Positions 1 through 44,500 of a stretch of 64,000 bases of DNA are shown here, in pieces. This DNA is from a virus. The DNA is taken from the IMG/VR virus record IMGVR_UViG_3300009159_000032. The stretch is one strand, 5' to 3'. The notes under the pieces are model-generated. The model was given only the letters and a program-made list of their open reading frames with translations, did not search any database and was not told the origin of the DNA. The translations under genes and the position numbers were made by a program. Each line of letters opens with the position of its first letter. The stretch's first letter is position 1.

Positions 1-1478
1 TTACTGCACTTGAAAAGAAAAAGAATTGTATTCTATTCATTGACGAAGCACACATGATGAACGGTGCGGGTGCAGCCGGAGGGGGTAGTAACGACATGGC
101 TAATATGCTGAAGCCGGCATTAGGCAAAGGCACACTTAAAGTCGTTGCCTCAACCACGTGGGAAGAATTCCGTAAACACTTTGAAAAGGATCGTGCCCTA
201 ATGCGTCGATTCCAACGTGTGATTGTGAATGAACCAAACGAAGCAACTTCTATTAAGATTATAAAAGGTCTTAAAAAGTATTACGAACAACATCACGGTG
301 TTAAGATTACTAATCAAGCTGTCATTGATAGTGTAAAATACAGTATCAAGTATATGACTGATAAACGCCTGCCAGACAAAGCCATTGATTTAATTGACTG
401 TGCCTGTGCTCGCTTTAAAGTACGTGATCAAGAAAACGGTATTGTTGACCACGACGAAATTGTTTTTGAAGTTAGTAAACTAACAGGTCTTCCATTAGAT
501 CAAATTGCTGCAAAAGAAAATAAAAATCTCAAAGACCTTGACAAGAATATGCGTAGCAAAGTGTATGGTCAAGAATCTGCAATTGAAATTTTGTTAGATA
601 AAATCTTTATTGCTCAAGCAGGTTTAAAATCTCTAAACAAACCTGTAGGTAGTTTCTTGTTTACTGGACCAACAGGCGTTGGTAAAACTGAAACTGCAAA
701 AGTGCTGGCCGCAGGTATGAGTGTAGAACTTGTACGTTTTGATATGAGTGAGTATCAAGAGAAACACAGTGTTGCCAAGTTTATCGGTGCTCCTCCAGGA
801 TATGTTGGTTTTGAAGACAATGCCGGACTGCTGATCACTAAACTACAAGAACATCCTAACTGTATCTTGTTATTTGATGAGATTGAAAAAGCACATCCGG
901 ATGTTAGTAATGTCCTATTACAACTAATGGACAATGGCTACGTTACAGGTAGCAACGGTAAAAAAGCAGATGGCCGCAATGCTATTCTTATCATGACCAG
1001 TAACTTAGGGGCCGCTGATGCAGAACGCAATGCTGTAGGCTTTGGTAGTCTTGAAAGAGATGATGACGGTAAAGATGCTGTTAACAGTTTCTTTAAGCCA
1101 GAATTCCGCAATCGTTTAGACGGTATTATTAAGTTTGGAAAACTTGATCATAACACAATGGCTAAAATTGTTAAGAAGTTTATTGACGAACTTAATAGTC
1201 TGCTTAAAGATAAGAATGTTCACGTTAAACTTAATGCAGATGCTGCTGAACTATTAATCAAGAAAGGCTTTAATCGTAAAATGGGTGCCCGCCCACTGCA
1301 ACGTACTATTGACGACATGATTAAAAAGCCACTAAGTAAAGAAATTTTATTTGGTAGACTTGTTAACGGTGGCATTATTGAAATTACAGTTAAGAACAAC
1401 CAACTGTCAATAACATACCCTGAGATTCTTTCAGTTGAGGCTACAAGTGATAAAGATAAAGAGACTGAAAACCAATAA
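1..1478 (+). CDS. clpA: ClpA-type AAA+ unfoldase (HSP100), 5'-truncated by the window edge
   Basis: The frame is open from position 3 (TALEKKKNCILFIDEAH = NBD1 Walker B). It has NBD2 Walker A GPTGVGKT, RFDMSEY, GAPPGYVG, Walker B LLFDEIEKAH and GARPL. There is no ClpB/C middle coiled coil, and a VGF ClpP-docking loop is present. Confidence 0.9.
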   Translation, partial: TALEKKKNCILFIDEAHMMNGAGAAGGGSNDMANMLKPALGKGTLKVVASTTWEEFRKHFEKDRALMRRFQRVIVNEPNEATSIKIIKGLKKYYEQHHGVKITNQAVIDSVKYSIKYMTDKRLPDKAIDLIDCACARFKVRDQENGIVDHDEIVFEVSKLTGLPLDQIAAKENKNLKDLDKNMRSKVYGQESAIEILLDKIFIAQAGLKSLNKPVGSFLFTGPTGVGKTETAKVLAAGMSVELVRFDMSEYQEKHSVAKFIGAPPGYVGFEDNAGLLITKLQEHPNCILLFDEIEKAHPDVSNVLLQLMDNGYVTGSNGKKADGRNAILIMTSNLGAADAERNAVGFGSLERDDDGKDAVNSFFKPEFRNRLDGIIKFGKLDHNTMAKIVKKFIDELNSLLKDKNVHVKLNADAAELLIKKGFNRKMGARPLQRTIDDMIKKPLSKEILFGRLVNGGIIEITVKNNQLSITYPEILSVEATSDKDKETENQ

Positions 1479-2139
1479 GCTGTTTTTTAACAAGTGGCCT
1501 TACAAGGTCAGTTGTAAAGTTTCTGGTGCAAGCAGGGTTGTTGCACTAGGCTTAGATCGTGCCGAAAAATGGTGTAAGGGAGAGTGGTCACCTCCTTTTA
1601 ATTCCTCTCGTATGAATGTTACTGATAAACCAGATCTATTAAAGTTTGTTAGGTCCATTAAAAGTTTAACTCTATTAAAAGAAGACGTTAAGGTTAGAGC
1701 CGAAGGCGCACATTTTAATATGTTTTTTAAAGATCCTACAATTTTGAAAAAAATTGAAAGGAAACTTAGTCCCTGGATTGAAAGCATTACTGAACCTAAT
1801 AGTCAAGAAGAACACGACTTTTTAATGTCTGGTAACAGTAAAAAAGTTCTCTGTGACGAAATACCCAAAGGCAAATATGTGTTTAAAGTGTATCTCAAAG
1901 AATCTATAAAATCAGATACACGAGAACAGTTCCTTCAATGGAGTGAAAAATACGGAGAGGATATAATTTTAGTCAGTCCTACAACATTGCGATGGTTAGC
2001 AGGGCAAAAATTGTACAAGCAAGACCCGTTTTTCTATGTCAACAACGCCTCAATGATGACTATGGTTAGAATTTTCCTTGGTGACAACGTAAGACGTGTG
2101 CATGAATACGTGCCCAGAAATAAGCTAGAACCAGTATAA
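1435..2139 (+). CDS. hypothetical protein (234 aa)
   Basis: Long ORF with a TTG start, colinear with and overlapping the clpA end; no recognisable motif. Confidence 0.7.
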   Translation: MRLQVIKIKRLKTNKLFFNKWPYKVSCKVSGASRVVALGLDRAEKWCKGEWSPPFNSSRMNVTDKPDLLKFVRSIKSLTLLKEDVKVRAEGAHFNMFFKDPTILKKIERKLSPWIESITEPNSQEEHDFLMSGNSKKVLCDEIPKGKYVFKVYLKESIKSDTREQFLQWSEKYGEDIILVSPTTLRWLAGQKLYKQDPFFYVNNASMMTMVRIFLGDNVRRVHEYVPRNKLEPV

Positions 2140-2142
2140 ATA
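2135..2142 (+). promoter_or_regulatory. T4-like late promoter TATAAATA
   Basis: Exact T4 late consensus 21 nt upstream of the ATG at 2164; it overlaps the upstream stop codon. Confidence 0.6.
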
Positions 2143-2665: not shown

Positions 2666-3043
2666 ATGCTATTGAACGAATTTTTTGGGTCTATTAATCT
2701 AAAAACAAATACTGAATCTTCAAAAAAAGAAGAACACAAAAAAGTTAAACAACAGGCCCTTGCTGACGATATTTTTGAATATATCATTAATAATAATAAG
2801 CTACACAAAAATGTATTCTTTCCCATTGCCGAAAAAATAGTTAAAGAAGCAACTAAAGAACATGATCCAAAAATGTGGATGCCTATAGTTAACAAAGGCT
2901 GTATGGAATTTTACAATCACATAAAATTAAAAGATAATCCCAAAGAACTTTTTACAGAAGAATTCCGTGAAGAATTGTGTCACAAAATGGCAGAACACTA
3001 CAACCGTGATATATTAACCGGCATATATAATCTAGGAAAATAA
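2666..3043 (+). CDS. hypothetical, candidate head-associated protein
   Basis: 125 aa with a GGAG RBS. The N-terminus MLLNEFF resembles that of the next gene (MLLNQLF). Confidence 0.7.
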   Translation: MLLNEFFGSINLKTNTESSKKEEHKKVKQQALADDIFEYIINNNKLHKNVFFPIAEKIVKEATKEHDPKMWMPIVNKGCMEFYNHIKLKDNPKELFTEEFREELCHKMAEHYNRDILTGIYNLGK

Positions 3044-6000
3044 ATGCTGTTAAATCAATTATTTTCTCCTAAAAAATTATTCGAGGGCGGCAACTTAGCC
3101 AGTCACAAAGCTGACGGACAACCTATGCCAGGATGGCAGGGGATTCCTGGACAACATCAAGCACAAGAACTAGATTTAAACGTACACAACCGTACAGAAG
3201 TAGTAGCTGTACTATCTGATTTATTACACGGTATTAATGATGCATTTGCACAACAATTTAAAGAACCGCTTTGGCATGAAAATTCTGTAAAGGCTCAAAA
3301 GTTCTTAAGTGGTAGTACTATGCGATTCTTTGATAAGAAAATTTCAGACGAAGAATTTGTACGTGTCAAACCTACAGTAGGTGATATTGATACACAGGCG
3401 CCCGATAAACACGAAGGAACAATCAAACAATTCCTTACAGGATTAATTGGTAAGAAAGTAGGCGATGCTAAATTTATTGGATTTAGTGCTGGTAACAATC
3501 AATACACTAGTATGTGGGAAGTTTTACTAAAGGATCTTCCAGTTAAATTACAGATCGACTTTGAATACGGAGCACACGATCCAGAAACTGGATTACCCAC
3601 TCCGTGGCAAGAATACAGTCATAGCAGTTCTTGGGAAGATTTATCAGCAGGTATCAAAGGTGTATTTCACAAATACATCGATCGCGCCTTGCCATACGCT
3701 TCTACTGTTAGCACTAAGTATGTTGCTCGTGTATTAAAGAAAAGTACAAAAATCAGTGATGAACCTGTAACAGATTCAGATTACAGTTTTGCTGTCAGTG
3801 GTCAAGGCGGTGGTGGTGTAAGTAGAAAGTATGTTCCTTATAATGATCCAGCTACTGGTGCTCCTATGGAAAGAGACGGCATACCAGTTATGCAGTTATT
3901 AGATCCAGCAAACAGACAATACATTCAAAATCTTGGACAACAATTTGAAATTTTCTTTGGTCGTAAACCCAAAGGTAATGATCAGCAACTTAAAAATAGT
4001 TTTGTGGGCACTGTAGAACTAGCCAACAAATATCTAGACGACCAACAACGTACAGAATTATTCAACAGATTTGTATCTATATGTTTCGAACCTGGTAGTC
4101 AAATGATTACCAAAGGCGACCCAGCTAGAGATCGCAATATTAAAATGGCTGCTATTGATTACATGATTCAAAACATGAAACTTGCTAATCCTCAGGGCAT
4201 GAGAAAGCAGGCTATTAAAACAGCCATGGACTATGAGCAGGCCTTTACTTCAAAGCAGGCAGGTAAGGGCTTGAACGAAGCAGAAGTTAAGGCACAGTTT
4301 CGTAAAAACATGCCTCACCTTAAGGATCTAAAGCCCATTGATTTTTTAGATTTGTTAGATGAATTGCATCAAGGCAACGGACAATTTAAATTAAAGAATA
4401 TTCCATTAAATGTCAAAGTAGATGGCTTTGGTGGCCGCTTTGGTAAGAACTCAGACGGCAAGCCATTTATGGCCACAAGTAGAACAGAGCCGCGTTATCA
4501 AGCAGGCTTTGTTGACTATCATCAAAAGAAAGGCACAACTGATCCCGAAATACTAGGTCGTGCTCAACTTTTTGACGATTTGTTTGCAGAAATGATGAGT
4601 GCTGTACAACTTGTTGACAGCAAACTAGGTCCTGATTTTTTAATTAACAAACAAGTAACCTGCGAAGTTTTATATCTGCCATTTGCTACAGAAACTCCAG
4701 AAGGCAGGTTAAAATTTGTAGGTATACACTATGACAAACTTCCACAGGGTGTTCAATTAGCACTAGTTCCGTTCCGCGTAACAGATGCAACCACAGGCGA
4801 AGACCTTCCAGAGTCAAATAAAATAGTTAAAGAATTAACCAGCGTAGGTCGTCAAGGCAGTGTAATGTTTATTGACAACAGTCTAACACAAAACGAAGAA
4901 TTAGATGTTACTGAAATTATTAATGTGTTAGATAATATTGAAGAATTAAAACAGATTGTGTCGGACACTGCTGGTAAAAGAGATCGTGCTAGTTTAGATC
5001 TTAGACGTCAAGTTGAAGAAAAATTACAACCAGTTAAAGTAGAACTTGAAAAAGCAATTATTAACGATCCTAACATCATTGGTAAAGATTTATTGGGCAA
5101 AGACTACGAAGGTATTGTTATCAATAGTCGCCTTGGTCCTATTAAAATTACCAGTCAAGAACAACGTGATGTTATTAGTGCTAAAAATGCAGCTAAAGTA
5201 AGTGCAAGAACAGAACAGCCACGTGCAAATTCTAATAAAACAGCAGTAGTAGCAATAGGATCTTTTATTGGTCATAAAGGGCACGAAGAACTTTGGGACT
5301 ATACTGTTAAGAAAGCAGAACAAGTTGGCGGTGATCCTTATCTGTTTATCGGTAATGCAGAAGGCAAAGACGATCCTATTCCTCCTTCAGTTAAAGTACA
5401 GACATGGCATAAACTATATCCAGAATATGCTAAGAATATCAGCACAGTACAAGAAGGCGGACAGCTAATACAAAAGATCAAACACGAATTAATTAATCCA
5501 CTTCCAGGTAAACCTCCACGCTATGATAACATTATTATCATGGTTGGCGAAGATAGAGCAGGTATTAACATGCCTAATGCTTTAATGAAAGCTGTGAACA
5601 AATTCCAAGGATATGAACATGTTAAGGTAAGCCTTGATGTTACTCCGCGTGGCACTGGAATTAGCGGAACTGCGTTACGTAATAGTCTAAAAAATGATCC
5701 TCCAGAAAAAGCATTGGCTACATGGTCTAATGCATTTGATGTAAACAAACTTGGTGTTGATTGGATCAAACACTTAATGGATATAACGAGAAAAGGTATG
5801 GGCATACAACAAACACAACCACAACAACCTGCATCGCAGCCCACACCAATGGCTGAGATGAGACTGTTCAACGCTCTTGTAGCACCAAAACATAGTATGC
5901 AAGAAGGCTTAGGTAAACACGTTGCTAGTGCTGCATTAGCAGGTGCTATGGCATTCGGTGGTGCAGGAGCACATGCCCAGAGTTCAGGAGAAGATTTTTT

Positions 6001-7117
6001 ACCCGATATTGTTGCTCACGTTACTTTTAAAGTTAACGGCAAAGAAATATCAAAAGATATTAATCTAGGAACAACATATAAATCTCCCGGTGAAGCGTCA
6101 GCTGCACTTGAAAAATTCTTAAAATCTAAAGGCATCAAGTATTTTGAATATAGTCTTGAGCGTGTAAAATCAAAAGATGACGACTATATAGATAAAACTC
6201 CGGCATCAGATACAAGTACATCGGGTTCCGTAGACAGTCGTCCTTACAGTTCAACTGGAAATTCACCAAGTAACTATATGGCTAAAGAAAATGTAGAAGA
6301 AGCTAAGTCTGCTAGTAGACGTTGGCATGATGCATTACAGCGTGAAAAAGAACGCCGTGAACGCAATGAACGTGCAGGTCAAGAACTTCTAAATCCTAAA
6401 AAGAAAGAAGAACCTAAAGAAAAAGATGTGGCGGAAGGCTCCTTAGAAGCAAATACTCCAAATCCTGTTGTAGTAGTACAAGACTTAAAAGGTAAGATTT
6501 TAGATAAAGTAAATCTATCAATGGCTGTACAAAAATATAAATTAGGCAACCCGCAAGATATAAAAAATCAATTAGCACATCAAAACTATACTCAAATTGG
6601 AAATTATATTATAGTGTCACCTATGAGCGGACAGCCGCAAGATGCAACAACGCAAGGTGTGGCGGAAGGTGACAGTGGTGCAAAATATAAAGTAAGAAGT
6701 ATTGGGCACGATGCCAAAGGTGATTATTATATCAGCCCAAGCACAGGAAAAAAAGTTTATAAAAAGGGTGCCAAAGTCGGTGATCACGAAAATCCCAAAA
6801 CGGGCGAGCACAAAGGTGTAGCGGAAGGTGATAGTCCAGCAATGGCACATACTACCAAGAGCTTGGAAAATCCTCCTAAGGTTATGCAACACCGTGCCAA
6901 ACGTGATCAAGAACGTGATAAGCAACTACAATATAGAAATATTTCTAAACGAGATGAAGATCTAGACGAAAAAATCAAAGGCGCAGACGGCAAAGCCTGC
7001 TGGCCCAACTATCGTTACAACGGTACAGAGAACGGCTCAGACAAGTGTGTTAAAATTGGCGAAGCATGGGAATTAGAAATGTCTAATGCTATTAGTAAAC
7101 TATTTGAAAACCGATGA
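3044..7117 (+). CDS. 1357-aa multidomain protein/polyprotein: Pol-beta-type NTase + ligase-type (KxDG) NTase + HIGH-type cytidylyltransferase-like domain + short modules
   Basis: Motifs GS..GDID (3311-3391), NVKVDG (4409-4426), YEGIVI/PIKI (about 5105-5150), GHKGH (5270-5284), MVGEDR and GISGTALR. The C-terminal modules are separated by VAEG repeats. Confidence 0.75.
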   Translation: MLLNQLFSPKKLFEGGNLASHKADGQPMPGWQGIPGQHQAQELDLNVHNRTEVVAVLSDLLHGINDAFAQQFKEPLWHENSVKAQKFLSGSTMRFFDKKISDEEFVRVKPTVGDIDTQAPDKHEGTIKQFLTGLIGKKVGDAKFIGFSAGNNQYTSMWEVLLKDLPVKLQIDFEYGAHDPETGLPTPWQEYSHSSSWEDLSAGIKGVFHKYIDRALPYASTVSTKYVARVLKKSTKISDEPVTDSDYSFAVSGQGGGGVSRKYVPYNDPATGAPMERDGIPVMQLLDPANRQYIQNLGQQFEIFFGRKPKGNDQQLKNSFVGTVELANKYLDDQQRTELFNRFVSICFEPGSQMITKGDPARDRNIKMAAIDYMIQNMKLANPQGMRKQAIKTAMDYEQAFTSKQAGKGLNEAEVKAQFRKNMPHLKDLKPIDFLDLLDELHQGNGQFKLKNIPLNVKVDGFGGRFGKNSDGKPFMATSRTEPRYQAGFVDYHQKKGTTDPEILGRAQLFDDLFAEMMSAVQLVDSKLGPDFLINKQVTCEVLYLPFATETPEGRLKFVGIHYDKLPQGVQLALVPFRVTDATTGEDLPESNKIVKELTSVGRQGSVMFIDNSLTQNEELDVTEIINVLDNIEELKQIVSDTAGKRDRASLDLRRQVEEKLQPVKVELEKAIINDPNIIGKDLLGKDYEGIVINSRLGPIKITSQEQRDVISAKNAAKVSARTEQPRANSNKTAVVAIGSFIGHKGHEELWDYTVKKAEQVGGDPYLFIGNAEGKDDPIPPSVKVQTWHKLYPEYAKNISTVQEGGQLIQKIKHELINPLPGKPPRYDNIIIMVGEDRAGINMPNALMKAVNKFQGYEHVKVSLDVTPRGTGISGTALRNSLKNDPPEKALATWSNAFDVNKLGVDWIKHLMDITRKGMGIQQTQPQQPASQPTPMAEMRLFNALVAPKHSMQEGLGKHVASAALAGAMAFGGAGAHAQSSGEDFLPDIVAHVTFKVNGKEISKDINLGTTYKSPGEASAALEKFLKSKGIKYFEYSLERVKSKDDDYIDKTPASDTSTSGSVDSRPYSSTGNSPSNYMAKENVEEAKSASRRWHDALQREKERRERNERAGQELLNPKKKEEPKEKDVAEGSLEANTPNPVVVVQDLKGKILDKVNLSMAVQKYKLGNPQDIKNQLAHQNYTQIGNYIIVSPMSGQPQDATTQGVAEGDSGAKYKVRSIGHDAKGDYYISPSTGKKVYKKGAKVGDHENPKTGEHKGVAEGDSPAMAHTTKSLENPPKVMQHRAKRDQERDKQLQYRNISKRDEDLDEKIKGADGKACWPNYRYNGTENGSDKCVKIGEAWELEMSNAISKLFENR

Positions 7118-7383
7118 AACAATATAGAATATCAGGATTCCCAATAGATGCATCAACTGATCCAGATTGTGCATTGTCTCCTGACGATCCTATACATAAA
7201 CTAAAGGCCAGTAATTGGCTAGGTGAATTAGGCGCCGAAGCTAGGATGGCAGAATACAATAACAGCAGTCGTACGCCTACATGGAATGATCCACGTAGCG
7301 AAAATGCACGTATTATGCGTGAACAAGGTATTAAACCAGGTACTCCTGCTTGGTTCGAGCTTTGGTTTGGAAAAAATAAATAA
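7114..7383 (+). CDS. hypothetical protein (89 aa)
   Basis: ATGA-coupled to the upstream gene; ends in KPGTPAWFELWF. Confidence 0.7.
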   Translation: MKQYRISGFPIDASTDPDCALSPDDPIHKLKASNWLGELGAEARMAEYNNSSRTPTWNDPRSENARIMREQGIKPGTPAWFELWFGKNK

Positions 7384-7389
7384 CATATT

Positions 7390-7764
7390 ATGAGAATATC
7401 TGAATTACTCACCGAAGTTAAGTCTGGCAAAATCAGCAAGAGAGCACAACAACCCAGTCGTGGCATTAACACCTATGGCGATGTTGAACACGCAAACAGC
7501 GACTATGTAGGCTTTAAGCTAGGGCAGGCTATGGCAATGAGTGACGGTTCGGGTGCTCCGATAAACATTGACCCTAAGAGCTGGTACGGTAAAAAGAAAA
7601 CTGTGCATCCTTATTCAGAAATAGAACAACAGATGTTTAAAGATGCGGCTAAGGTAGTCGGAGCTAGTTATAAAGATATAAACAAAGGCGATATGAAAAG
7701 CAAAGAGCTAGACAGTACTCACAATATTAGTCCTGTGCCTGATAGAAAGAAGCTAGCAAAATGA
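7390..7764 (+). CDS. candidate internal head protein
   Basis: N-terminus MRISELLTE resembles a T4 capsid-targeting sequence; ATAAATA lies at 7376-7382. Confidence 0.7.
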   Translation: MRISELLTEVKSGKISKRAQQPSRGINTYGDVEHANSDYVGFKLGQAMAMSDGSGAPINIDPKSWYGKKKTVHPYSEIEQQMFKDAAKVVGASYKDINKGDMKSKELDSTHNISPVPDRKKLAK

Positions 7765-7925
7765 AAATACAAGAACTCTTAGAAACAGCAACAGGTATGG
7801 GCACCAGTGCTATTGCAACCAGCATGCCTGCAAAGAAACCTAAGAAGGGACAGAAATTAAATCTGCTTGGGACTCCTGTATCTGAGACAGATAAAGAAGT
7901 TAAGATAATAAAGAGACAACCATGA
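7761..7925 (+). CDS. small candidate internal head protein (54 aa, missing from the ORF track)
   Basis: Manual translation gives MKIQELLETATGMGTSAIATSMPAKKPKKGQKLNLLGTPVSETDKEVKIIKRQP. It has ATGA overlaps with both neighbours and fills the gap exactly. Confidence 0.8.
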   Translation: MKIQELLETATGMGTSAIATSMPAKKPKKGQKLNLLGTPVSETDKEVKIIKRQP

Positions 7926-8773
7926 ATCATCCAGACCACGAAATAGAAATGGCACGTTCCGAATTATATTCAATAGCCAAATATGCTATTGCACTTCACG
8001 AGATGTTAGAAAATGTCAGTGAACTAGACGGCATGGAAGGTTGGCAACAGAGTAAAATCACTCGTGCAGCTGACTACATGGAAAGTGTTTATCAAAGCCT
8101 TACACATGAAATGAAATTTGGAGAGTCTGCTCCCAAAGGTTGGGAAGGTACCGTTAAGGCCATGAAGAAACACAAGGAAATTGATAATCCTTGGGCACTA
8201 GCACACTATATGAAAAACAAAGGCTACAAGAGTCACAAGAAAGAAGAAGGTGTGGCAGAAGCAGGATATGGTCGTAACAAAGATTACGATCCCGGATTTG
8301 CCAGTCCACACGCACCAAAGTTAACACCTATTGGTGGTCCAAAACAAGATGACGAATACGTAAACGGTAATCCAGTAAACAATATTGAAGTATCTATTAA
8401 CGGTCGTCCTTGGAAGATATTTCCAGGCAAGGGACCAGATGGTAGTCGGGCATTTTTCCAACAAAAACAAGATGTTGACGAAATGTGTAAACGCAAGACT
8501 GCCGCAACTGGTAAGAAATGGAGTTGGGGTGTTACCGGTGAGCCTGCTACCAATGAAAGTACTGTGCAGGAACACAAGAAAGGTGTACGTGCTATGAAGC
8601 ATACCACTAAGCCAAGAAACCCAGTAATGGCTGGAGACAAACCAGGTAAAGCAACTGTTACTCACAAAAACAAAAAGAAAGATCAACAACGCGGTGTAGA
8701 AAAACACAAAGGCAAAGAACCTGCTTATGAATCGCGCCTGTGGAACGCACTGTCACAACACTTAGAAAAATAA
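7922..8773 (+). CDS. modular hypothetical protein, candidate polyprotein
   Basis: 283 aa of short modules separated by FGE/S, VAE/A, TNE/S and VQE/H; contains one GVAEA repeat. Confidence 0.75.
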   Translation: MNHPDHEIEMARSELYSIAKYAIALHEMLENVSELDGMEGWQQSKITRAADYMESVYQSLTHEMKFGESAPKGWEGTVKAMKKHKEIDNPWALAHYMKNKGYKSHKKEEGVAEAGYGRNKDYDPGFASPHAPKLTPIGGPKQDDEYVNGNPVNNIEVSINGRPWKIFPGKGPDGSRAFFQQKQDVDEMCKRKTAATGKKWSWGVTGEPATNESTVQEHKKGVRAMKHTTKPRNPVMAGDKPGKATVTHKNKKKDQQRGVEKHKGKEPAYESRLWNALSQHLEK

Positions 8774-10026
8774 TGCGTATACAAGAGCTAGTTGAAACAT
8801 CAAAGCGTACACCAGATTTGATGGATGCGTTTAAGGTTTTTATTCCTCTAGCTATGAAAGAGCTAGAGATTGATCAGCTACCTGATATTAAATTACAATC
8901 AAAATTAGAATTAGATGAACAACCTTCATTCGGACGTTTTGTTCAACATGAAAACAGAATTTATCTAGCTTTGGAAAATCGTCATCCTATTGATATACTT
9001 AGAACATTTGCACATGAACTTGTACACTACAAACAAGGTACAGAACACGAGTTAGATTCTAATAGCGGCGACACTGGTAGTCCACAAGAAAACGAAGCAC
9101 ACGAAGTAGCTGGTGTTATTATGAGACATTTTGATAAAATGTATCCTGAGTTTTTTGATACTTCTGCTGTTGATATCAGTGAAAGTTTGCGAAGTAAGGC
9201 AGCAGGGCTGGCATTAGGTGCTTTGTCTCTAGGTGCTCAAGCTACTGCACCACAGATAGTCCAACAAATTGTCGAGCCAGGTGATACAGTTTATAGTATA
9301 GCAAGACAAAATAATGTACCGCCTGCTGAAATTATGAAACTTAATAAAATGGGGCAAAAGACTAAACTTGAAATTGGTCAGAAAGTAAAAGTTCCAGATT
9401 ATTCAAAACCTATTAGCAAAATGCCTGCTACAGTAACTCCTACTGTTAAGCAAGAACCTACTAAAATATCTCCGGATGCACAGGCAGCTCCAATGAAAGT
9501 ATTGCCTAAAGTAGGCAGTGAAGTTTCTTTATTAAGTAATAATACGGATGCTGAGGCTGCATTGCAATCTGCTGCCAAAGCCGCAGGGCTTAAAGGCGCA
9601 GAGCTGGCACAGTTTATGGCGCAGACTAGACATGAAAGTTGGGACTTTGGCAAAATGAAGGAAGTAGGTAACAAGAAAAAATTTGCCAAATATGAAACTC
9701 CACGCAAAGCAAGACAATTAGGCAATAAAGTAAAAGGCGACGGTGAAAGATTTAAAGGTCGTGGCTTTATACAATTAACTGGCAGAGATAATTACACTAG
9801 AGCCAGTGAACAAATTTTTGGTGATGACAGACTAGTTCGTAAACCTGAATTAGCCAGCGATCTTAACATTGCTGCTAAGATTGCACTTTGGTATTGGAAA
9901 AATCAAGTTAGACCTAATGTAAATAACTTTAATAATACAAAAGAAGTGACTAATGCAATTAATCCGGGTCTAAGTGGACTACAAGACCGACACAATAAAT
10001 TTAAGGAGTATCTAGCAGTATTATGA
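8773..10026 (+). CDS. zincin-like (HExxH) + LysM + GH19 chitinase/peptidoglycan hydrolase
   Basis: Likely start is ATG 8773 (TAATG overlap, MRIQELVE). Motifs AHELVH..ENEAH, LysM VEPGDTVYSIARQNNV (about 9271-9396), and GH19 FMAQTRHES, GRGFIQLTGRDNY and ALWYW. Confidence 0.85.
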   Translation: MRIQELVETSKRTPDLMDAFKVFIPLAMKELEIDQLPDIKLQSKLELDEQPSFGRFVQHENRIYLALENRHPIDILRTFAHELVHYKQGTEHELDSNSGDTGSPQENEAHEVAGVIMRHFDKMYPEFFDTSAVDISESLRSKAAGLALGALSLGAQATAPQIVQQIVEPGDTVYSIARQNNVPPAEIMKLNKMGQKTKLEIGQKVKVPDYSKPISKMPATVTPTVKQEPTKISPDAQAAPMKVLPKVGSEVSLLSNNTDAEAALQSAAKAAGLKGAELAQFMAQTRHESWDFGKMKEVGNKKKFAKYETPRKARQLGNKVKGDGERFKGRGFIQLTGRDNYTRASEQIFGDDRLVRKPELASDLNIAAKIALWYWKNQVRPNVNNFNNTKEVTNAINPGLSGLQDRHNKFKEYLAVL

Positions 10027-10715
10027 GAGTCAATGAATTTATAAACGAAGGCTGGAGCCAAAAATATAAAAAAAGCATTAACTGTTCGCACCCAAAAGGT
10101 TTCAGTCAACGTGCTCACTGTGCTGGCAAAAAGAAGCATAACGAAAGCATAGAAACAGAAATGACCTGCCCTGACTGCGGTCTTTGTGAGGCACACGGCA
10201 ATAGTAAAATTTACGATAAGTGCTGGACAGGTTTTAGAAAAGTACCAGGAAAGAAACGTGGTGAAGATGGTAGCTGTAAGAAGATTGGTGAAGATGAAGA
10301 ATTACATCAAGAGTTTGACTTAATTGAACAAATGGTTGAGCATATTGCAAGACAACACGCTATTGATCCTGAATTTGTCTGGGAAGATCTAGAAAGTCTC
10401 ACAGACGACGAACTATATGTATTTGCTGTCACACAAGAACCTGTAATGGAAGATTGGCAAAAAGTTAACAAAAGAGATAAAACCGATGGCATGAGCCGTA
10501 AAGCTGTTAATGCTTATCGAAGAGAAAACCCGGGTAGTAAATTAAAGACCGCCGTAACTACCAAGCCAAGTAAACTAAAGCGTGGTAGCAAGGCCAGCAA
10601 GCGTAGAAGTAGCTATTGTTCTAGGTCCGCTGGACAAAAGAGTATGCATCATATTGATTGCAGCAAAACTCCAGACAAGGCAATTTGCAAAGCACGACGT
10701 CGTTGGAACTGCTGA
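10023..10715 (+). CDS. basic, Cys-containing modular protein, candidate internal head polyprotein
   Basis: Starts MRVNEFINE/GW; K/R-rich modules are separated by HNE/S, IGE/D and VME/D. Confidence 0.75.
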   Translation: MRVNEFINEGWSQKYKKSINCSHPKGFSQRAHCAGKKKHNESIETEMTCPDCGLCEAHGNSKIYDKCWTGFRKVPGKKRGEDGSCKKIGEDEELHQEFDLIEQMVEHIARQHAIDPEFVWEDLESLTDDELYVFAVTQEPVMEDWQKVNKRDKTDGMSRKAVNAYRRENPGSKLKTAVTTKPSKLKRGSKASKRRSSYCSRSAGQKSMHHIDCSKTPDKAICKARRRWNC

Positions 10716-10912
10716 TGCGAATAACAGAGCTTATTGAAAACTTTGCAGATGGTCGTAATCCACAGGATAAAGGCGATGCTAAACGTCACGGAATTAATAC
10801 CAAAGCCAGTGTAAGTAGTTTGCGTAAAACTGCCAAGCAAGGTGGACGCAAAGGACAACTAGCACATTGGCTGGCTAATATGAAAGCTGGTAGAGCTAAG
10901 AAGAAACATTAA
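10715..10912 (+). CDS. small basic candidate internal head protein
   Basis: Likely start is ATG 10715 (TGATG overlap, MRITELIE/N). Confidence 0.7.
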   Translation: MRITELIENFADGRNPQDKGDAKRHGINTKASVSSLRKTAKQGGRKGQLAHWLANMKAGRAKKKH

Positions 10913-10915
10913 TAT

Positions 10916-11593
10916 ATGACCGAAGAATTGCACACTCAACCAATATATCGAAAACATGAGATACCTCTTGTTAATTATCTAATGACTTTTAAAGATGCCC
11001 TAACAGAAGAATTTTTAAAATTTCACGATAATTGGTTTAATCAAGATGAAGATGTAAAAGGCCTTATACTAACTAGACCAGCAGGTCGAAACGTTGACAA
11101 TTATTTAAGCGACCCTAATGCATGGAAATCTTCGTGGATCAGATACGAATATACTCCCGGAGGTAAAGTTCTTAATAATGATAATACTATTTGGACTTTT
11201 CCAACAGCACATAAAATAATGAAACAGTATGAAGGGCAACTTGGAATTGTTATGTATAGTGTGTTAGAAGCAAACAGTGTTATCAGTAGGCATACTGGTC
11301 CAGAAAATCGTACTGGCGAATATTTAAGAATTCATTTGCCTCTTATTGTGCCAGACGGTGATATATTTTTAGAAGTGAACGGGGAAGAAATAGATTGGAG
11401 CGAACCTTTTGGTTTTAATAATCAGTATATTCACAGTGCTCATAATTATAGTCCTAAAAGAAGATTGGTATTTTTGATCGATATTAAAAGAAGTTTTCTA
11501 GGATTACCTCGAGGAGTTCATTTTCGTGCAAAAGATCATATAGCATATCTAGCATCAGTTCAACCTTTTAAAAGAAAAGGTATTACAATATGA
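10916..11593 (+). CDS. aspartyl/asparaginyl beta-hydroxylase-family 2OG-Fe(II) dioxygenase
   Basis: Motifs SRHTGPEN, LRIHLPLIVP, GFNNQYIHSAHN and RRLVFLID. Confidence 0.8.
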   Translation: MTEELHTQPIYRKHEIPLVNYLMTFKDALTEEFLKFHDNWFNQDEDVKGLILTRPAGRNVDNYLSDPNAWKSSWIRYEYTPGGKVLNNDNTIWTFPTAHKIMKQYEGQLGIVMYSVLEANSVISRHTGPENRTGEYLRIHLPLIVPDGDIFLEVNGEEIDWSEPFGFNNQYIHSAHNYSPKRRLVFLIDIKRSFLGLPRGVHFRAKDHIAYLASVQPFKRKGITI

Positions 11594-12129
11594 GAGACTT
11601 ATTGACCATTATAGAAGCTGTAGAAACTAAAAAATTAACTACAGAAAAACTGCCCTACGGCAAGTCTGAACTTAATCCTGTCATGAGTGATGCCACTATC
11701 AATTATCATTACGAAAAACTAGCCAAGGGGTATGCAGAAAAATATAACAAAGGCGAAGGTGATGATGCTTTTAATATTGCAGGAAGTTTTCTTCATAATT
11801 TATTCTTTCCTCAATTACAGCCTCCCAAAACAAATAATAAACCTGTAGGTGCAAGTTTAGCACTTATTGAAAAGAAATTTAAATCATTTGAAAAATTTCA
11901 AGAAGAAATGCAAACTGAAGCTATGAAAATACAAGGCAGCGGATGGATTTACATGAGCACATCCGGTGCTATTAAAACAATTAAGAATCACGAGGTTAGA
12001 AAAGATATAGCATTGTTGATTGACTGGTGGGAACATGCCTGGGCATTGGACTACCAAGCAGACAAGCAAAAATATATCAAAAACATTTGGCGTATAATTA
12101 ATTGGGAAGTTGTTAACTCAAGACTATAA
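11590..12129 (+). CDS. sod: Fe/Mn superoxide dismutase
   Basis: Motifs LPY..ELNP, INYHY, FLHNLFF, QGSGW and IDWWEHAW..DYQ..K..YI..IW..INW. All four metal ligands (H, H, D, H) can be identified. Confidence 0.9.
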   Translation: MRDLLTIIEAVETKKLTTEKLPYGKSELNPVMSDATINYHYEKLAKGYAEKYNKGEGDDAFNIAGSFLHNLFFPQLQPPKTNNKPVGASLALIEKKFKSFEKFQEEMQTEAMKIQGSGWIYMSTSGAIKTIKNHEVRKDIALLIDWWEHAWALDYQADKQKYIKNIWRIINWEVVNSRL

Positions 12130-29238: not shown

Positions 29239-30492
29239 ATGACATCAGTAATGAAGACCGAAAAGGTTAAAAAAGCAGTTCCTACTAAAGAATACACTGC
29301 TTCAGAAAAATCCAAAATTTTAGATAAACTTATCACTGCCCGTGTAGGTTTATTGTTGCGTCATCCGTTTTTTGGCAATCTTGCTACACGTATGAAATTA
29401 ATTGATGCCAGTGATTGGTGTCCTACACTAGCCACAGACGGACGTAATTTTTATTACAATAACGATTTTGTTTACAAGTTAAAACCAAAAGAAGCAGAGT
29501 TTGGCTTTGCTCACGAAGTATTGCACAATGTATTTGATCACATGGGGCGTCGTGATCATCGAGATCCAGTTATTTCTAACATTTCCGCAGACTATGCCGC
29601 AAATCAAATTCTTAAAGATGAAGGTATTGGAGAAGTTCCAAGTTGGATTAAAATTTATCAAGACAACAAATATCGTGGCTGGAGTTACGAACAGATTTAT
29701 GAAGAGCTCGAATCCAAAGCAACTAAAATTGATTTAAGTACACTTGGAGAGTTACTCGACGAACATTTGGATGGTGAAGGTGACGACGGTGACGAGGATG
29801 AAAACGGCAACAAAAATGGTAGCGGTCGTCCAAAATTAACTGCTGAAGAAAAGAAAGCAATCAAAGACGAAATTAAAGAAGCTATGGTTGCGGCTGCTCA
29901 GGCTGCAGGTGCCGGGCGTGTACCGGCAGGTGTACAACGTCTAATCCAAACTTTTACTGAACCTAAAATGGATTGGCGTCAAATGTTGCGTATGAATATC
30001 CAAAGCATTATTAAAAGCAATTTTAGTTTTGCTCGTCCAAATCGCAAGTCACAGCACTGCGGTGCAATTTTGCCCGGTTTGATGAACGAAGAAACAATCG
30101 ATGTAGCAGTAGCTATTGATATGAGTGGCAGTATTTCGGACAAAATGGCCAATGACTTTATCAGTGAAGTCAAAGGTATTATGGACGAATATGTTGACTT
30201 TAAATTGGATCTATGGTGTTTTGATACAGCAGTGTATGGTTACCAACAATTCACAGGCGATAACGCTGACGAAATTATGGAATACAAATGCAAAGGAGGT
30301 GGTGGCACTGACTTTGATGTTAACTACGAGTTCATGAAAGAAAACGACATCAATCCAAAACGTTTCATTATGTTTACAGACGGCTATCCTTGCGGTAGCT
30401 GGGGTGACGAGGATTATTGCGAATCATTGTTCATTGTACACGGAAATGATAAGATCATTTCTCCATTCGGCCAGACTGCACATTATAAATAA
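29239..30492 (+). CDS. HExxH metallopeptidase-like + vWA domain protein (MoxR partner)
   Basis: Motifs ATDG, AHEVLH, acidic linker, MIDAS VAIDMSGSI, GGGGTDF and MFTDGY; likely start is ATG 29239. Confidence 0.85.
   Translation: MTSVMKTEKVKKAVPTKEYTASEKSKILDKLITARVGLLLRHPFFGNLATRMKLIDASDWCPTLATDGRNFYYNNDFVYKLKPKEAEFGFAHEVLHNVFDHMGRRDHRDPVISNISADYAANQILKDEGIGEVPSWIKIYQDNKYRGWSYEQIYEELESKATKIDLSTLGELLDEHLDGEGDDGDEDENGNKNGSGRPKLTAEEKKAIKDEIKEAMVAAAQAAGAGRVPAGVQRLIQTFTEPKMDWRQMLRMNIQSIIKSNFSFARPNRKSQHCGAILPGLMNEETIDVAVAIDMSGSISDKMANDFISEVKGIMDEYVDFKLDLWCFDTAVYGYQQFTGDNADEIMEYKCKGGGGTDFDVNYEFMKENDINPKRFIMFTDGYPCGSWGDEDYCESLFIVHGNDKIISPFGQTAHYK
30484..30491 (+). promoter_or_regulatory. T4-like late promoter TATAAATA
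   Basis: Exact consensus overlapping the upstream stop, 13 nt before ATG 30505. Confidence 0.45.
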
Positions 30493-41577: not shown

Positions 41578-44500
41578 TTATTGACCTATTAAAGGATCTC
41601 CTGTTTCACTGTCTAAAGTATCTCCGGATTCAAGCACCAGATATTGATCAGTTGTAGTGTTCTGACCATAGTAATATTTATCTGGCATAAAAGATGGGCT
41701 CTCTAACAAGAACTGTATTTGATCTGTGTTGCGTAAATGGATATTAGAATATTCAAATCCAGTCACAACATCAGTCTTAATTACTACCTTAATTTCAGCA
41801 TCTTCTCTTGGTAAACTAGCCAATACTAAAACGTTAGTTCCAGTTATTGAAAACTCAGGAACAATTGTTTCATTACTTGATGTACCGTATGAATTAACTG
41901 AATCAGAATCGTATGCAATATCAGTACGTGTTCGAACATAGTCTAAACCAGGTTTTGTTAATTGGCGGCCTTGAACAAATACATCAATTTGATACTGTGT
42001 CGCAGTTGATGCGGAAAATGTCAACGGTGTTAGAGCATTTAGATCCCAAGTTGAAGTTCCGTATCTAATATTGTCTGCACCTGTGGCCCAATATGTAGTA
42101 GCAGTGGTCCAGGTTCTAACATTTTCACTTACATAAATTGTCTGTCCTGCACCTTGATCAACAACTATTGAACTTTCTTTGTGCAGAGTTTTAACACCTG
42201 TGCCTAATGTACCTCGTCTTAGGCTACTTAGTTTATTACCAGATAGTCTGTAGAATTCAATTCTTTCGCCGTTAATAAGAATAATACCAGGACGAGATCT
42301 AGCAACGTTAGGCGGTGTTAATACACTGGCATCCTCAACTGTGATCTCAGTGTCAGAGACTGTAAGATCAGCAGCTAATTGTGTAGAATTATTACCGCTT
42401 AGTCGCTTATAATGTGTTCTTCCTAAGTTGTCTCTAAAAATTCTATACCCTAATAACGATTCATTTGTTTTATCAACAACGCTCATTATTACTACAGTGT
42501 CACTTCCTTGTATAGATATTGATGGACTTACTATAATAGTCTTTTGATCACTTTCTAATCTGTAGTGAATATTTTTTGTTAAAGGTTTTCCATTAAGTTC
42601 AACCCATACATAGTTTGTACTTAATGCTGGTCTGGTTAATCTAAAAATTCCACTGCCGTTTCCAGGAAATCTTTCTCTTCTAATCAACGAATTATCGTGA
42701 TTGGTAAAAGTAGTTACTTTTAATGTACTAGAACTAGCAACACTGACTCTATCAGTAAAAATTAAATTTTGTCCTTGAACAATATAGTCATGATCGCGAA
42801 GTATAGTAATTGCAATTGCATCACCTTGTGAAATTGTGTCGACTGCAAATTCAATTAAATTTTCTTCTTGTCGAAGAGATAAGGCTGCACCAAAATATCT
42901 TCTAACGCCATTAACATATACTTCTAAGTGTGCCATGTCAGGAAGACCCTGAACATAATTGTAATGTTGATCAAAAGAGAAAGTTAACTGATTAGTTTCT
43001 GCAATATAATATACAGTATCGGGAGGACTTAATCTTGTACCATTTCTTTCAACAATTATTTGACTATGCAAAGGTCCAATTACACCCGGTGACTGGGATA
43101 ACACAAAAGTGCCGGTGCCAATATTGGCAGAAATATACTGATCATTGACTTCGCTGAATGCTTTGTGTTCGCCGGCAAACGCCCACGCTTGTAGTAGATC
43201 TCCATAATTTAAATTGTTAGTAAATCGTATAATAGCTCTGCCAGACATTCCCCCGTTAGTAGATCCCACTAAGGTATAGGCAGTTGATTTCACTCCGTTA
43301 ACTGTTACATACAAACTTTTAACGCTGGACTTGCTTACTGATAATTCAAAATTATTTTTTCCTGTAGCGGAACTAACGGCATAATGAGCTTTATCAATTA
43401 AATTCTTACCGCCAACATTCATTGTGGTAATTGACAAAAATTGTGGTGCAATCGTCTGAGCTCTAAATGGATCAAAACTGCCTCGGCCTGCATATTTCCA
43501 ATTGCCACCGTTAATTGTACTGTAGAAAACATGGCTAGTATTATTAAGAATTTGTGTGTAGTCTACTTCAACTCCGGTACCGTTAGTTGTTCCTGTTTTG
43601 CCTGTAGCAATACCCGTGATAAATCCTAAATCGCCATTAAAGTTTGCTTCACGCCACGTGTTCTCATAAATCATTTCAACATATTGGTCAGTACCATTAC
43701 TGTACAAAGTAACTTCGTATTGATACGCCGGAACTGTAGGAGTTTGCTCTCTTTTATTATAGTGCGATCCTTGGAATCTTAATCTCCAATATGTAAAATC
43801 ACCTATTGTTCCGCCACTCAAAAATAAGCCAGGAACTTCTCCGGTATCTAAAGGTTGCCCAGAACTTCCTACTGCCTGCCATAAATCGCAATATTCAATA
43901 TATATAGCAGGTTGAGTTAAAAATCCTAATTGAAGAGGTGTCCAAGATGAGTTTCCAGACCCAAATGTTAGGTATCCGTTAGTACCTACATAAACTTCAT
44001 CATATATAGAATCAAACATATTCCACTCAAATCCCAATGAGTACGGACCTGTTGATGTATCATCTCCAGCTGTTGACGCTATAGGAAAACTAATGTTTTC
44101 TTTTCTTGGAAGGACTACGGTTGAACTAAAATAAGGTCCTTGAATTTCAAGTAACGGACTATCTAATAATACTATTTCATTTGTCTCAAAATCAATAGTG
44201 TAATCAATAGCGTATGTTAGCACTGTGCCATCTTTGATAACTTCAACAGAACTAGTGTTTGGAGGAGTCATACCTATTGCATATCTAATAACTCCTACTT
44301 CAAGATAATGTTGTTTATTAATAACTAATCCAGTCCCTGATTCAGGATATGTAAAAATATTAATACCTAAACTATCAGAAACTCTTCCAGGAAGATTTTC
44401 TTCAGGTCCGTAACTATTTGTAGCACTAACAAATGCATCACCGTCAATGTTGATATCTTCGTAGTCGTTAGATTTGGTTAATACCAAATCTCCATCAAGG

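Follow-up and report, generated by a model that had tools for sequence, protein, structure and literature searches.

Do the tightly packed genes of a jumbo phage encode a payload that is directed to the phage head by a common N-terminal tag and cut there into separate enzymes and peptides? This question was raised by a locus of approximately 9.5 kb (positions 2666 to 12129) on a 64,000-nucleotide stretch of viral DNA from IMG/VR record IMGVR_UViG_3300009159_000032, which was analysed over its full length and is here called the window. An original prediction, made from the DNA of the window, had described this cargo locus as a series of genes whose products share an N-terminus similar to the capsid-targeting sequence (CTS) of phage T4 internal proteins (IPs), and its large open reading frames (ORFs) as polyproteins with hydrophobic-x-Glu cut sites at their domain borders. 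We found that the architecture of tag and cut sites is, at the level of sequence, real, conserved and far beyond chance, and that nothing known clearly comes as close to it as the T4 internal-protein system. The full reading, in which the products would be targeted to the head and a gp21-type protease would cut them at leaders and junctions, appears probable to us, if well short of certain; the narrower claim that some protease cuts after these Glu residues seems more likely.

The N-terminal leader

Five adjacent genes (7390 to 10715; genes are named by the position of their first nucleotide) begin with M-[RK]-[IV]-x-E-[LF]-[LIV]-x-E. The regular expression M[RK][IVL].E[LF][LIV].?E returned five matches in the six frames of the 64 kb, all five at the starts of genes 7390 to 10715, and none in 100 shuffles of the window. 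All eight N-termini named in the original prediction were found at their positions, and the proposed likeness to the T4 tag was supported. The leaders of the window end in LTE, LLE, LVE, INE, LIE or IIE, which is the hydrophobic-x-Glu motif of gp21-type cleavage. In T4, an Asp in place of the final Glu stops processing and leaves targeting intact. The codons for Arg, Leu and Glu vary synonymously between the leader copies, so that conservation acts on the peptide. When the tagged window proteins were compared, no similarity was found past the first 10 residues, which ruled out paralogy as the origin of the common N-termini. A stop codon lies 2-19 codons upstream of each tagged start with no Met between them, and most tagged starts overlap the preceding stop; the starts are therefore real and translationally coupled. 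The looser leaders MLLNEFF (2666), MLLNQLF..LFE (3044) and MRDLLTIIE (11590) scored low on a position-specific scoring matrix (PSSM).

The window phage is an uncultured giant (jumbo) T4-type freshwater myovirus. By DNA polymerase it is nearest to Sinorhizobium phage Phosso (51%), Atu_ph07 (46%) and Rak2/121Q-like phages (43%), and T4-type baseplate, hub and fibre genes lie on the minus strand of the window. A DNA-level search with the cargo locus against 50,697 phage records gave zero matches. Four relatives were found in IMG/VR, of which G001, G002 and G003 were taken whole for comparison with the window:

G001: complete contig of 367 kb
G002: contig of 225 kb
G003: contig of 22 kb, with a homologue of the window lysozyme protein that is 89% identical
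Second short fragment: 6.9 kb

The complete relative G001 carried the tag pattern seven times in the six frames of its 367 kb, each time at a gene start (7/7), against 0.2 in shuffles, and its tagged proteins are unrelated to one another and scattered across 160 kb. A looser tag pattern also fell almost exclusively on gene starts in four genomes. The looser leader classes recur in relatives and metagenomes (MLLRELY, MLLTQLF, MRDIISLLE, MREHIDLVE), and MLL.[EQ]L leaders head many metagenomic relatives. For the 124-aa product of gene 7390 there were 251 metagenomic homologues; among the 120 matches listed, 119 began with Met. Over positions 1-9 these 119 follow the pattern M-[RK]-[AVI]-x-[ED]-[FIL]-I-x-E, in which Glu 9 is present in 113 of them and Ile 7 in 104. 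We take the leaders to be a discrete conserved N-terminal tag that is a general device of this phage group. A search with a DNA pattern for the tag gave no in-frame match in Phosso, Atu_ph07, Vibrio phage 2.275.O, P-TIM68 and phiKT1024.

The genes of the locus are as follows, with a slash at predicted cuts and leader coordinates in brackets:

2666 to 3043, plus strand: gene 2666, 125 aa, weak leader MLLNE/FF (MLLxEL class), 85% identical in G003
3044 to 7117, plus strand: gene 3044, putative polyprotein of 1357 aa, leader MLLNQLFSPKKLFE/ (3044-3085), described from PHROG matches and module comparison
7114 to 7383, plus strand: gene 7114, ORF of 89 aa without leader, 97% identical in G003, start overlapping the previous stop (ATGA)
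7390 to 7764, plus strand: gene 7390, 124 aa, leader MRISELLTE/ (7390-7416), G001 homologue beginning MRANEFISE
7761 to 7925, plus strand: gene 7761, peptide of 54 aa, leader MKIQELLE/ (7761-7784), G002 homologue beginning MRASEIVE/S
7922 to 8773, plus strand: gene 7922, 283 aa, no N-terminal tag, internal GVAE/A junction (E113, 8258-8260)
8773 to 10026, plus strand: gene 8773, 417 aa, leader MRIQELVE/ (8773-8796), Pfam LysM and Glyco_hydro_19, phrog_87
10023 to 10715, plus strand: gene 10023, 230 aa, leader MRVNEFINE/ (10023-10049), Pfam DUF6321
10715 to 10912, plus strand: gene 10715, 65 aa, leader MRITELIE/ (10715-10738) followed by a 57-aa basic module, named NFADG
10916 to 11593, plus strand: gene 10916, AspH-like hydroxylase without leader, Pfam Asp_Arg_Hydrox
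11590 to 12129, plus strand: gene 11590, similar to Fe/Mn superoxide dismutase (SOD), 9-residue leader MRDLLTIIE/ (11590-11616), Pfam Sod_Fe_C and Sod_Fe_N

The idea that the whole locus of about 9.5 kb is tagged thus stood for the eight leaders and failed for genes 7114 and 10916, which have no leader, and for gene 7922, which has no N-terminal one; these three are not to be counted as cargo at present. The product of gene 2666 had no family match in Pfam or PHROG, and gene 10916 had no homologues at E 1e-5 in G001-G003. Homologues of the SOD-like protein begin MRDIISLLE in G001 and MREHIDLVE in G002, with the hydrophobic residue 7 and Glu 9 kept. At the place where cellular SODs read H-x-K-H-H this protein reads HYEKLA, and its activity is uncertain.

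Module borders and junctions

Every homology breakpoint between the window and its relatives fell just after a hydrophobic-x-Glu. All ten junctions lay within one residue of hydrophobic-x-E, which has a background density of 2.2% of positions, a coincidence with a rough chance of 1e-12; the possibility, raised with the original prediction, that X-X-E sites are no more frequent at borders than elsewhere was thereby answered in favour of enrichment. The sites that it had listed were all present, and the tested ones (LFE/G, MQE/G, VAE/G three times, LDE/K, ISE/S, INE/G and VME/D) coincided with comparative module borders, while LNE/A lies between two PHROG domain matches. These results support the proposal that the large ORFs would behave as polyproteins, with modules delimited exactly by hydrophobic-x-Glu.

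The longest product, that of gene 3044, contains a phrog_19290 domain, a phrog_12709 domain, a cytidyltransferase-like domain, a small domain resembling a signal peptide and four short C-terminal modules. Cuts are predicted after E14, E412 (4277-4279), E954 (5903-5905) and E1131 (6434-6436), and further ones after E1208 (6665-6667), E1261 (6824-6826) and E1309 (6968-6970). In G003 and G002 the C-terminal modules are re-ordered exactly at the Glu residues of predicted cuts. HSMQE/GLGKHVAS corresponds to HKGVAE/GLGKHVAG in G003, EKDVAE/GSLEANTP to EQGVAE/GQLELNTP in G003 and DQGVSE/GQLELNTP in G002, TQGVAE/GDSGAKYK to EKDVAE/GSGGAQYK in G003, and LDE/KIKGADGKACW to VGE/TDKKKGADGKACW in G003.

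Other genes of the locus showed the same behaviour. The G003 version of gene 7922 holds two additional modules, flanked by FGVAE/N, SKGVAE/G and TGVAE/A. The product of gene 7761 reads MKIQELLE/TATGMGTS, and its module is fused behind the 7390 module in 24 metagenomic proteins, always as T-[TS]-E/[SA]A[ST]. After the leader of gene 8773 come a HExxH metalloprotease-like domain and the site ISE/S (E137, 9181-9183); a segment SLRSKAAGLALGALSLGAQA resembling a signal peptide then leads into LysM and a GH19 lysozyme. In G001 and G002 the signal-LysM-GH19 unit is preceded by unrelated modules, and here too homology breaks off at E/. Elsewhere, G001 (285132-285617) and G002 (101678-102166) each encode a further GH19 paralogue with 30-34% identity to the tagged LysM-GH19 unit; these may be the actual endolysins of the two phages. 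In gene 10023 the leader is followed by a Cys-rich module, the site VME/D (E143, 10449-10451) and the basic C-terminal DUF6321 module; DUF6321 also occurs in 100 cultured aquatic phage records including cyanomyoviruses and pelagiphages. Further enzymes are fused into such chains in relatives (L004:7607-10831 of G002; metagenomic P0179 and P0231), namely a nucleotidyltransferase-like domain, dCMP/cytidine deaminase, GNAT, a ParB-like DGHHR motif, amidoligase, DUF6934 and DUF6886.

Tag, internal junction and plain start codon can replace one another before the same module. The 3044 leader, MLLNQLFSPKKLFE/GGN, corresponds to MKLSELILILE/GGN in Campylobacter phage CP21_014 and to M/GGN in the homologue of Vibrio phage phiKT1024, and MRVNEFINE/GWSQKYKK of gene 10023 to M/GWSEKYKK in cyanophage S-SRM01 (in BLASTP, residue 10 here aligns with residue 2 there). 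The cultured-phage homologues in phiKT1024 and S-SRM01 thus start exactly one residue past the Glu. NFADG, the 7761 module, GLGKHVA and the 3044 C-terminal modules each follow a tag in one genome and an internal E/ in another, and one module is preceded in one genome by an 8-residue leader, in another by a long protein with I-A-E at its end. This interchange of tag plus module, E/module and M/module is the strongest argument that the sequence upstream of the Glu gets removed.

The 57-residue NFADG module (window 10739-10909; ENFADG[RK]NPQDKGD..GGRKGQLAHW[LM]ANMK.GRAKKK) matched 1,938 representative metagenomic protein clusters. The best 150 of these, with 143 junction sites, were analysed. Over the module they were 71-98% identical, the carrier proteins ranged from 80 to 2,006 residues, and the module was C-terminal at 111 of the 143 sites. 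It stands as MRITELIE/NFADGRNP in gene 10715, at the end of a 435-aa protein in G002 (LTRTIAE/NFADGKNP) and at the end of a 172-aa protein in G003 (DQQGMAE/NFADGKNP). Although the proteins have nothing else in common upstream of it, every one of the 143 sites has Glu at P1, and P3, the third residue before the cut, is V/L/I/M/F at 87% against a background of 24%; Ala at P2 (34%), Gly at P4 (36%) and Gln at P5 (31%) complete a consensus over the 143 sites of Q-G-V-A-E/N-F-A-D-G. A leader of the known classes was found on at least 70 of the 130 NFADG-bearing proteins that begin with Met. Neither Pfam nor PHROG has a family for the module itself, cultured phages gave no match, the literature searched does not mention it, and a protein atlas search returned viral hypothetical clusters only. 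An AlphaFold model consists of a disordered head and two helices (pLDDT 70), a shape too simple to be informative in fold comparison.

The junctions are conserved as DNA as well. Most G-V-A-E-G junctions of the window, G001 and G003 are encoded by a nearly identical GC-rich 14-mer, GGTGTGGCGGAAGG. In the window they are found at:

6425-6439: G-V-A-E-G junction
6656-6670: G-V-A-E-G junction
6815-6829: G-V-A-E-G junction
8249-8263: G-V-A-E-G junction

The codons of GGTGTGGCGGAAGG are rare here (9% of Val codons are GTG and 4% of Ala codons are GCG), and the peptide motif persists where the junction DNA differs, as in GGAGTAGCCGAGGGA, GACGTAGCAGAAGGC and the GVSE or GMAE variants. We read this as two superimposed selective layers, one being the peptide motif and the other a DNA microhomology that promotes or else records cassette exchange. 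Shuffling of modules at the junctions is supported by the comparisons above, and GGTGTGGCGGAAGG is a probable site of cassette exchange. Only two proteins in the G001 proteome (115,697 residues) contain GVAE, of which one is tagged and the other begins with the tag-like MRAHELEE; the G001 scaffold candidate is among the three proteins that have at least two VAE[GSAND] sites.

Proposed head targeting and cleavage, and the alternatives

Read from the T4 record, ipII and ipIII begin MKTYQEFIAE/A and ipI begins MKTFKEF...ITE/A. Leaders of the window and its relatives such as MRATEFIAE, MRASEFITE/A and MRVNEFINE/G have the E-F-I-x-E core in common with T4 and are one residue shorter. The T4 tag has 10 residues, of which 4 and 7 are needed for targeting and 8 and 10 for processing (PMC9026906, PMC3012670), and gp21 cuts after L/I-x-E (PMC9026906). 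The internal proteins of T-even phages are diverse and have only the tag in common (PMC3012670), which is why homology to them would not be expected here; a comparison of the locus products with Pfam and PHROG indeed gave no match to the internal virion proteins IPI, IPII, IPIII or Alt. We also observed CTS-like leaders in two other places: the 54-aa hypothetical protein gp61.1 of T4 (NC_000866 18966-19130) begins MKTFKEFIKE and so ends I-K-E, and in the cultured freshwater cyanomyovirus S-SRM01 (MW015081.1 47292-47321) a reading frame begins with MKSFQEFLFE, a targeting-like leader of T4 length.

The search for a gp21-like protease, suggested along with the original prediction, was successful in the complete relative G001, which encodes a gp21-family protease (PF03420, Peptidase_S77, 99.5 bits) that is 36% identical to T4 gp21 and keeps GE.xHP and GVSSRG. 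The surrounding head genes have a T4-like order of portal, two small ORFs, protease, coiled-coil scaffold candidate and capsid, with portal, protease and capsid recognised by PHROGs. The N-terminal 45 residues of the capsid contain LLE, LLE, ILE and LAE, and the scaffold candidate contains LVAE/G and FVAE/S. The expectation that capsid, scaffold and other head proteins would also score for the tag was disappointed: capsid and scaffold of G001 scored low on the PSSM, and neither they nor the protease had the tag. In T4 reviews the tag is named for internal proteins only (PMC9026906, PMC3012670).

Under the full reading, a leader of 8-14 residues (M-R/K-A/I/V-x-E-F/L-I/L-x-E) would dock each product on the scaffolding core during prohead building, as a CTS does. 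A gp21-type serine protease would then cut after Glu, removing the leader and splitting the chains, typically at (Q)G-V-A-E before G, N, A or S. The pieces so released would be nucleotidyltransferase-type, cytidyltransferase-like and metalloprotease-like domains, the LysM-GH19 lysozyme and small basic peptides (NFADG, DUF6321), which would remain in the filled head and exit with the DNA at the next infection. The GGTGTGGCGGAAGG junction would double as microhomology for module swaps between genes and genomes, the one step here that sequence comparison supports, and would make the payload highly changeable.

Several modules carry segments that resemble export signals, one of three features, with the NFADG module and the conserved junction DNA, that were absent from the original prediction. 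These segments lie 4-8 residues past several predicted cuts and consist of a basic start, a core of 13-18 Ala, Gly or Leu residues and A-x-A. They were seen, as were twin-arginine (Tat) motifs, in the window, three relatives and metagenomic proteins:

Window 9184-9243 and 5906-5980: signal-like segments
L004:5573-6619: signal-like segments
Metagenomic P0160, P0161, P0215 and P0224: signal-like segments

Segments of Sec type are ISE/SLRSK-AAGLALGALSLGA-QA, MQE/GLGKH-VASAALAGAMAFGGAGA-HA and the metagenomic GVAE/GWKD-VVAGGALALGALGAGA-Q; LDE/DLSRRGFLK-GAGAAAMAGAAGSAMA is of Tat type. A signal-peptide or SAR endolysin would have an N-terminal signal or weakly hydrophobic anchor directly before its muralytic domain; here an Ala/Gly-rich segment with A-x-A precedes LysM-GH19 in four of four genomes, at an internal position 137-790 residues from the N-terminus. 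The predicted cleavage after Glu would expose these segments as N-terminal export signals.

A number of observations speak against head targeting and gp21-type cleavage. Sec/Tat-type signals are odd for proteins destined for the cytoplasm of the next host, which is the main unexplained point and complicates a simple picture of injection into the cytoplasm; such segments fit a payload that acts on the envelope, whether ejected into the periplasm or re-exported, and fit equally well cutting in the producing cell followed by secretion. At P3 the favoured residue is Val here and Leu or Ile in T4; the fusions of 7390 with 7761 have Thr, Lys or Ala in this place, which is then not hydrophobic. It is also conceivable that the Glu preceding NFADG belongs to the module. 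Since the junction is kept at the DNA level despite its rare codons, recombination instead of proteolysis could be the cause of its conservation. Phosso, Atu_ph07 and Vibrio phage 2.275.O, the nearest cultured relatives by DNA polymerase, are without the tag. We infer docking, cleavage, packaging and ejection from the patterns described above, and the protease and head genes described are those of the relative G001. Late-promoter support for the locus is weak as well. It concerns the following motif:

2135 to 2142, plus strand: TATAAATA, candidate T4-type late promoter, 21 nt upstream of gene 2164

Gene 2164 heads a tightly coupled gene chain that leads into the cargo locus. TATAAATA is strongly depleted in the window, with two copies (2135-2142 and 30484-30491) against 9.3 expected, and both are located 13-21 nt ahead of plus-strand gene starts. 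Little weight can be put on it, since the motif is no marker of head genes in G001.

A first alternative, which we consider unlikely, is that the products remain uncut multidomain proteins. GVAEG would then be a flexible linker, kept as GC-rich DNA for recombination or cassette exchange, and the leader would do something else, for instance form a helix for oligomerisation or docking, be recognised by the ClpA-like unfoldase of the phage or help translation to start. Such a role for the junction would fit well with DNA that is nearly identical across genomes despite rare codons and at which modules are demonstrably shuffled, but it leaves unexplained why the amino-acid motif survives the DNA differences noted above and why P1 Glu and a hydrophobic P3 are retained before NFADG in about 140 unrelated contexts. 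Moreover, the equivalence of tag plus module, E/module and M/module makes sense only with the upstream part removed. As for the leader, the gene of a ClpA-like ATPase immediately precedes the locus in the window and G002, but in G001 some 80 kb or more separate it from the tagged clusters, and the variable tag codons make a role at the mRNA level unlikely.

Cutting might instead take place in the cytoplasm of the producing cell by another protease, either the HExxH domain of the 8773 type or a host enzyme, with nothing packaged. Here the freed modules would be exported via the Sec/Tat routes of the host, as lysozyme for lysis or as periplasmic enzymes, and the leader would be an inactivating pro-peptide. 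The presence of the HExxH domain, the resemblance of the LysM-GH19 unit to an exported endolysin, and the Sec-like segments and SRRGFLK Tat motifs 4-8 residues past hydrophobic-x-Glu sites are all in its favour. Yet many tagged proteins have no HExxH domain, most modules (nucleotidyltransferase-type, GNAT, deaminase, basic peptides) have no signal peptide, and the extra GH19 paralogue of G001 and of G002 could be the true endolysin. The best likeness of the leader is the head-targeting tag of T4, and a Glu-specific gp21-family protease is present in G001; to our knowledge, gp21 represents the only Glu-specific protease family of T4-type phages. We regard cytoplasmic cutting as less probable again than uncut proteins.

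That the common N-termini are a by-product of common descent among diverged paralogues, which the adjacent, tightly packed genes would suit as tandem duplicates, or of gene calling with the true starts further downstream is very improbable, given the Met-free stretch of 2-19 codons from each upstream stop, the starts overlapping the previous stop, and a tag that is conserved in hundreds of homologues and heads unrelated proteins across the 367-kb genome.

Head targeting with gp21-type cleavage thus remains the reading that we prefer. A bolder version of it, rather unlikely as a whole, would be an undescribed, widespread cassette system of aquatic T4-like phages that links four features. Enzyme and peptide modules would be strung into head-targeted polyproteins, and the 14-nt junction GGTGTGGCGGAAGG (G-V-A-E-G) would be recombination point and head-protease site at once. 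Most chains would end in the near-invariant NFADG peptide, released in many copies as a DNA-associated internal protein. Lastly, cleavage would unmask Sec/Tat signals, and some injected modules including the lysozyme would be re-exported to the periplasm of the newly infected cell.

Relation to known systems

The capsid-targeting tag of T4 is a textbook route for loading proteins into a phage head and has been used to engineer protein delivery. As with IPI, IPII, IPIII and Alt of T4, proteins with no other similarity have in common only a short leader ending in hydrophobic-x-Glu, their genes occupy a variable locus, and a gp21-family protease is found together with a T4-like head order (in G001). 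In contrast to T4, the leaders are mostly of 8-9 residues and fall into several classes. The T4 internal proteins are single small proteins, whereas many products here are long chains of enzyme modules with internal (Q)GVAE/G junctions. The junction is also conserved as DNA and is a shuffling point, the 57-residue basic NFADG module stands on the end of most chains in the metagenomic set, and some modules begin with Sec/Tat-like signals.

Giant phages of the phiKZ type (phiKZ, 201phi2-1, SPN3US) have many head-internal proteins, known as ejection and inner-body proteins, that are cut after Glu by a diverged gp21 homologue, with several cuts in gp53 of SPN3US and a head protein load of over 40 MDa in that phage (PMC9026906, PMC10052503). 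The original claim of a payload far above that of the T4 internal proteins was in this respect overstated as a novelty. Multiple cuts after Glu, a minimal motif and a large protein mass in the head would be common ground with the phiKZ type. Unlike the window group, these phages cut at S/A-x-E and have no common short N-terminal tag described (PMC9026906, PMC10052503), and they are not T4-type in replication or tail genes; the window group has a hydrophobic P3, T4-like tags and recognisable enzyme modules shuffled as cassettes. Picornavirus and potyvirus polyproteins are similar in that a short conserved junction motif separates independently folding modules in varied orders and combinations. 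Those are RNA viruses in which the polyprotein is the main expression strategy, whereas here a dsDNA phage would use it for a presumed payload only, and the presumed enzyme is an assembly protease acting inside the prohead. What is new is the combination of a T4-type tag with cleavable, shuffled enzyme cassettes and a widespread basic NFADG module, a large head protein load being already known.

If the preferred reading is true, uncultured giant T4-like phages have scaled up the T4 tag device to kilobases of enzyme cassettes that are cleavable and can be reshuffled, likely as an arsenal for host take-over or counter-defence. It would also explain what many multi-domain proteins do that are listed as 'hypothetical' among the phage sequences of freshwater and marine metagenomes. 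The reading supplies a cleavage consensus (Q-G-V-A-E/), a compact natural tag and a very abundant peptide (NFADG, about 1,900 clusters), which are directly testable.

Two further genes were noted outside the cargo locus. A ClpA/ClpB-like double-AAA+ unfoldase is encoded in all three larger genomes (window 3-1478; L004:1651-3903; G001 271741-273045). Its gene immediately precedes the cargo locus in the window and in G002 but not in G001; on account of this position it was rejected as a reader of the tag. A single ORF of 4,769 aa is located between baseplate and fibre genes of the window (41578-55887, minus strand), and G001 has an ORF of 8,153 aa.

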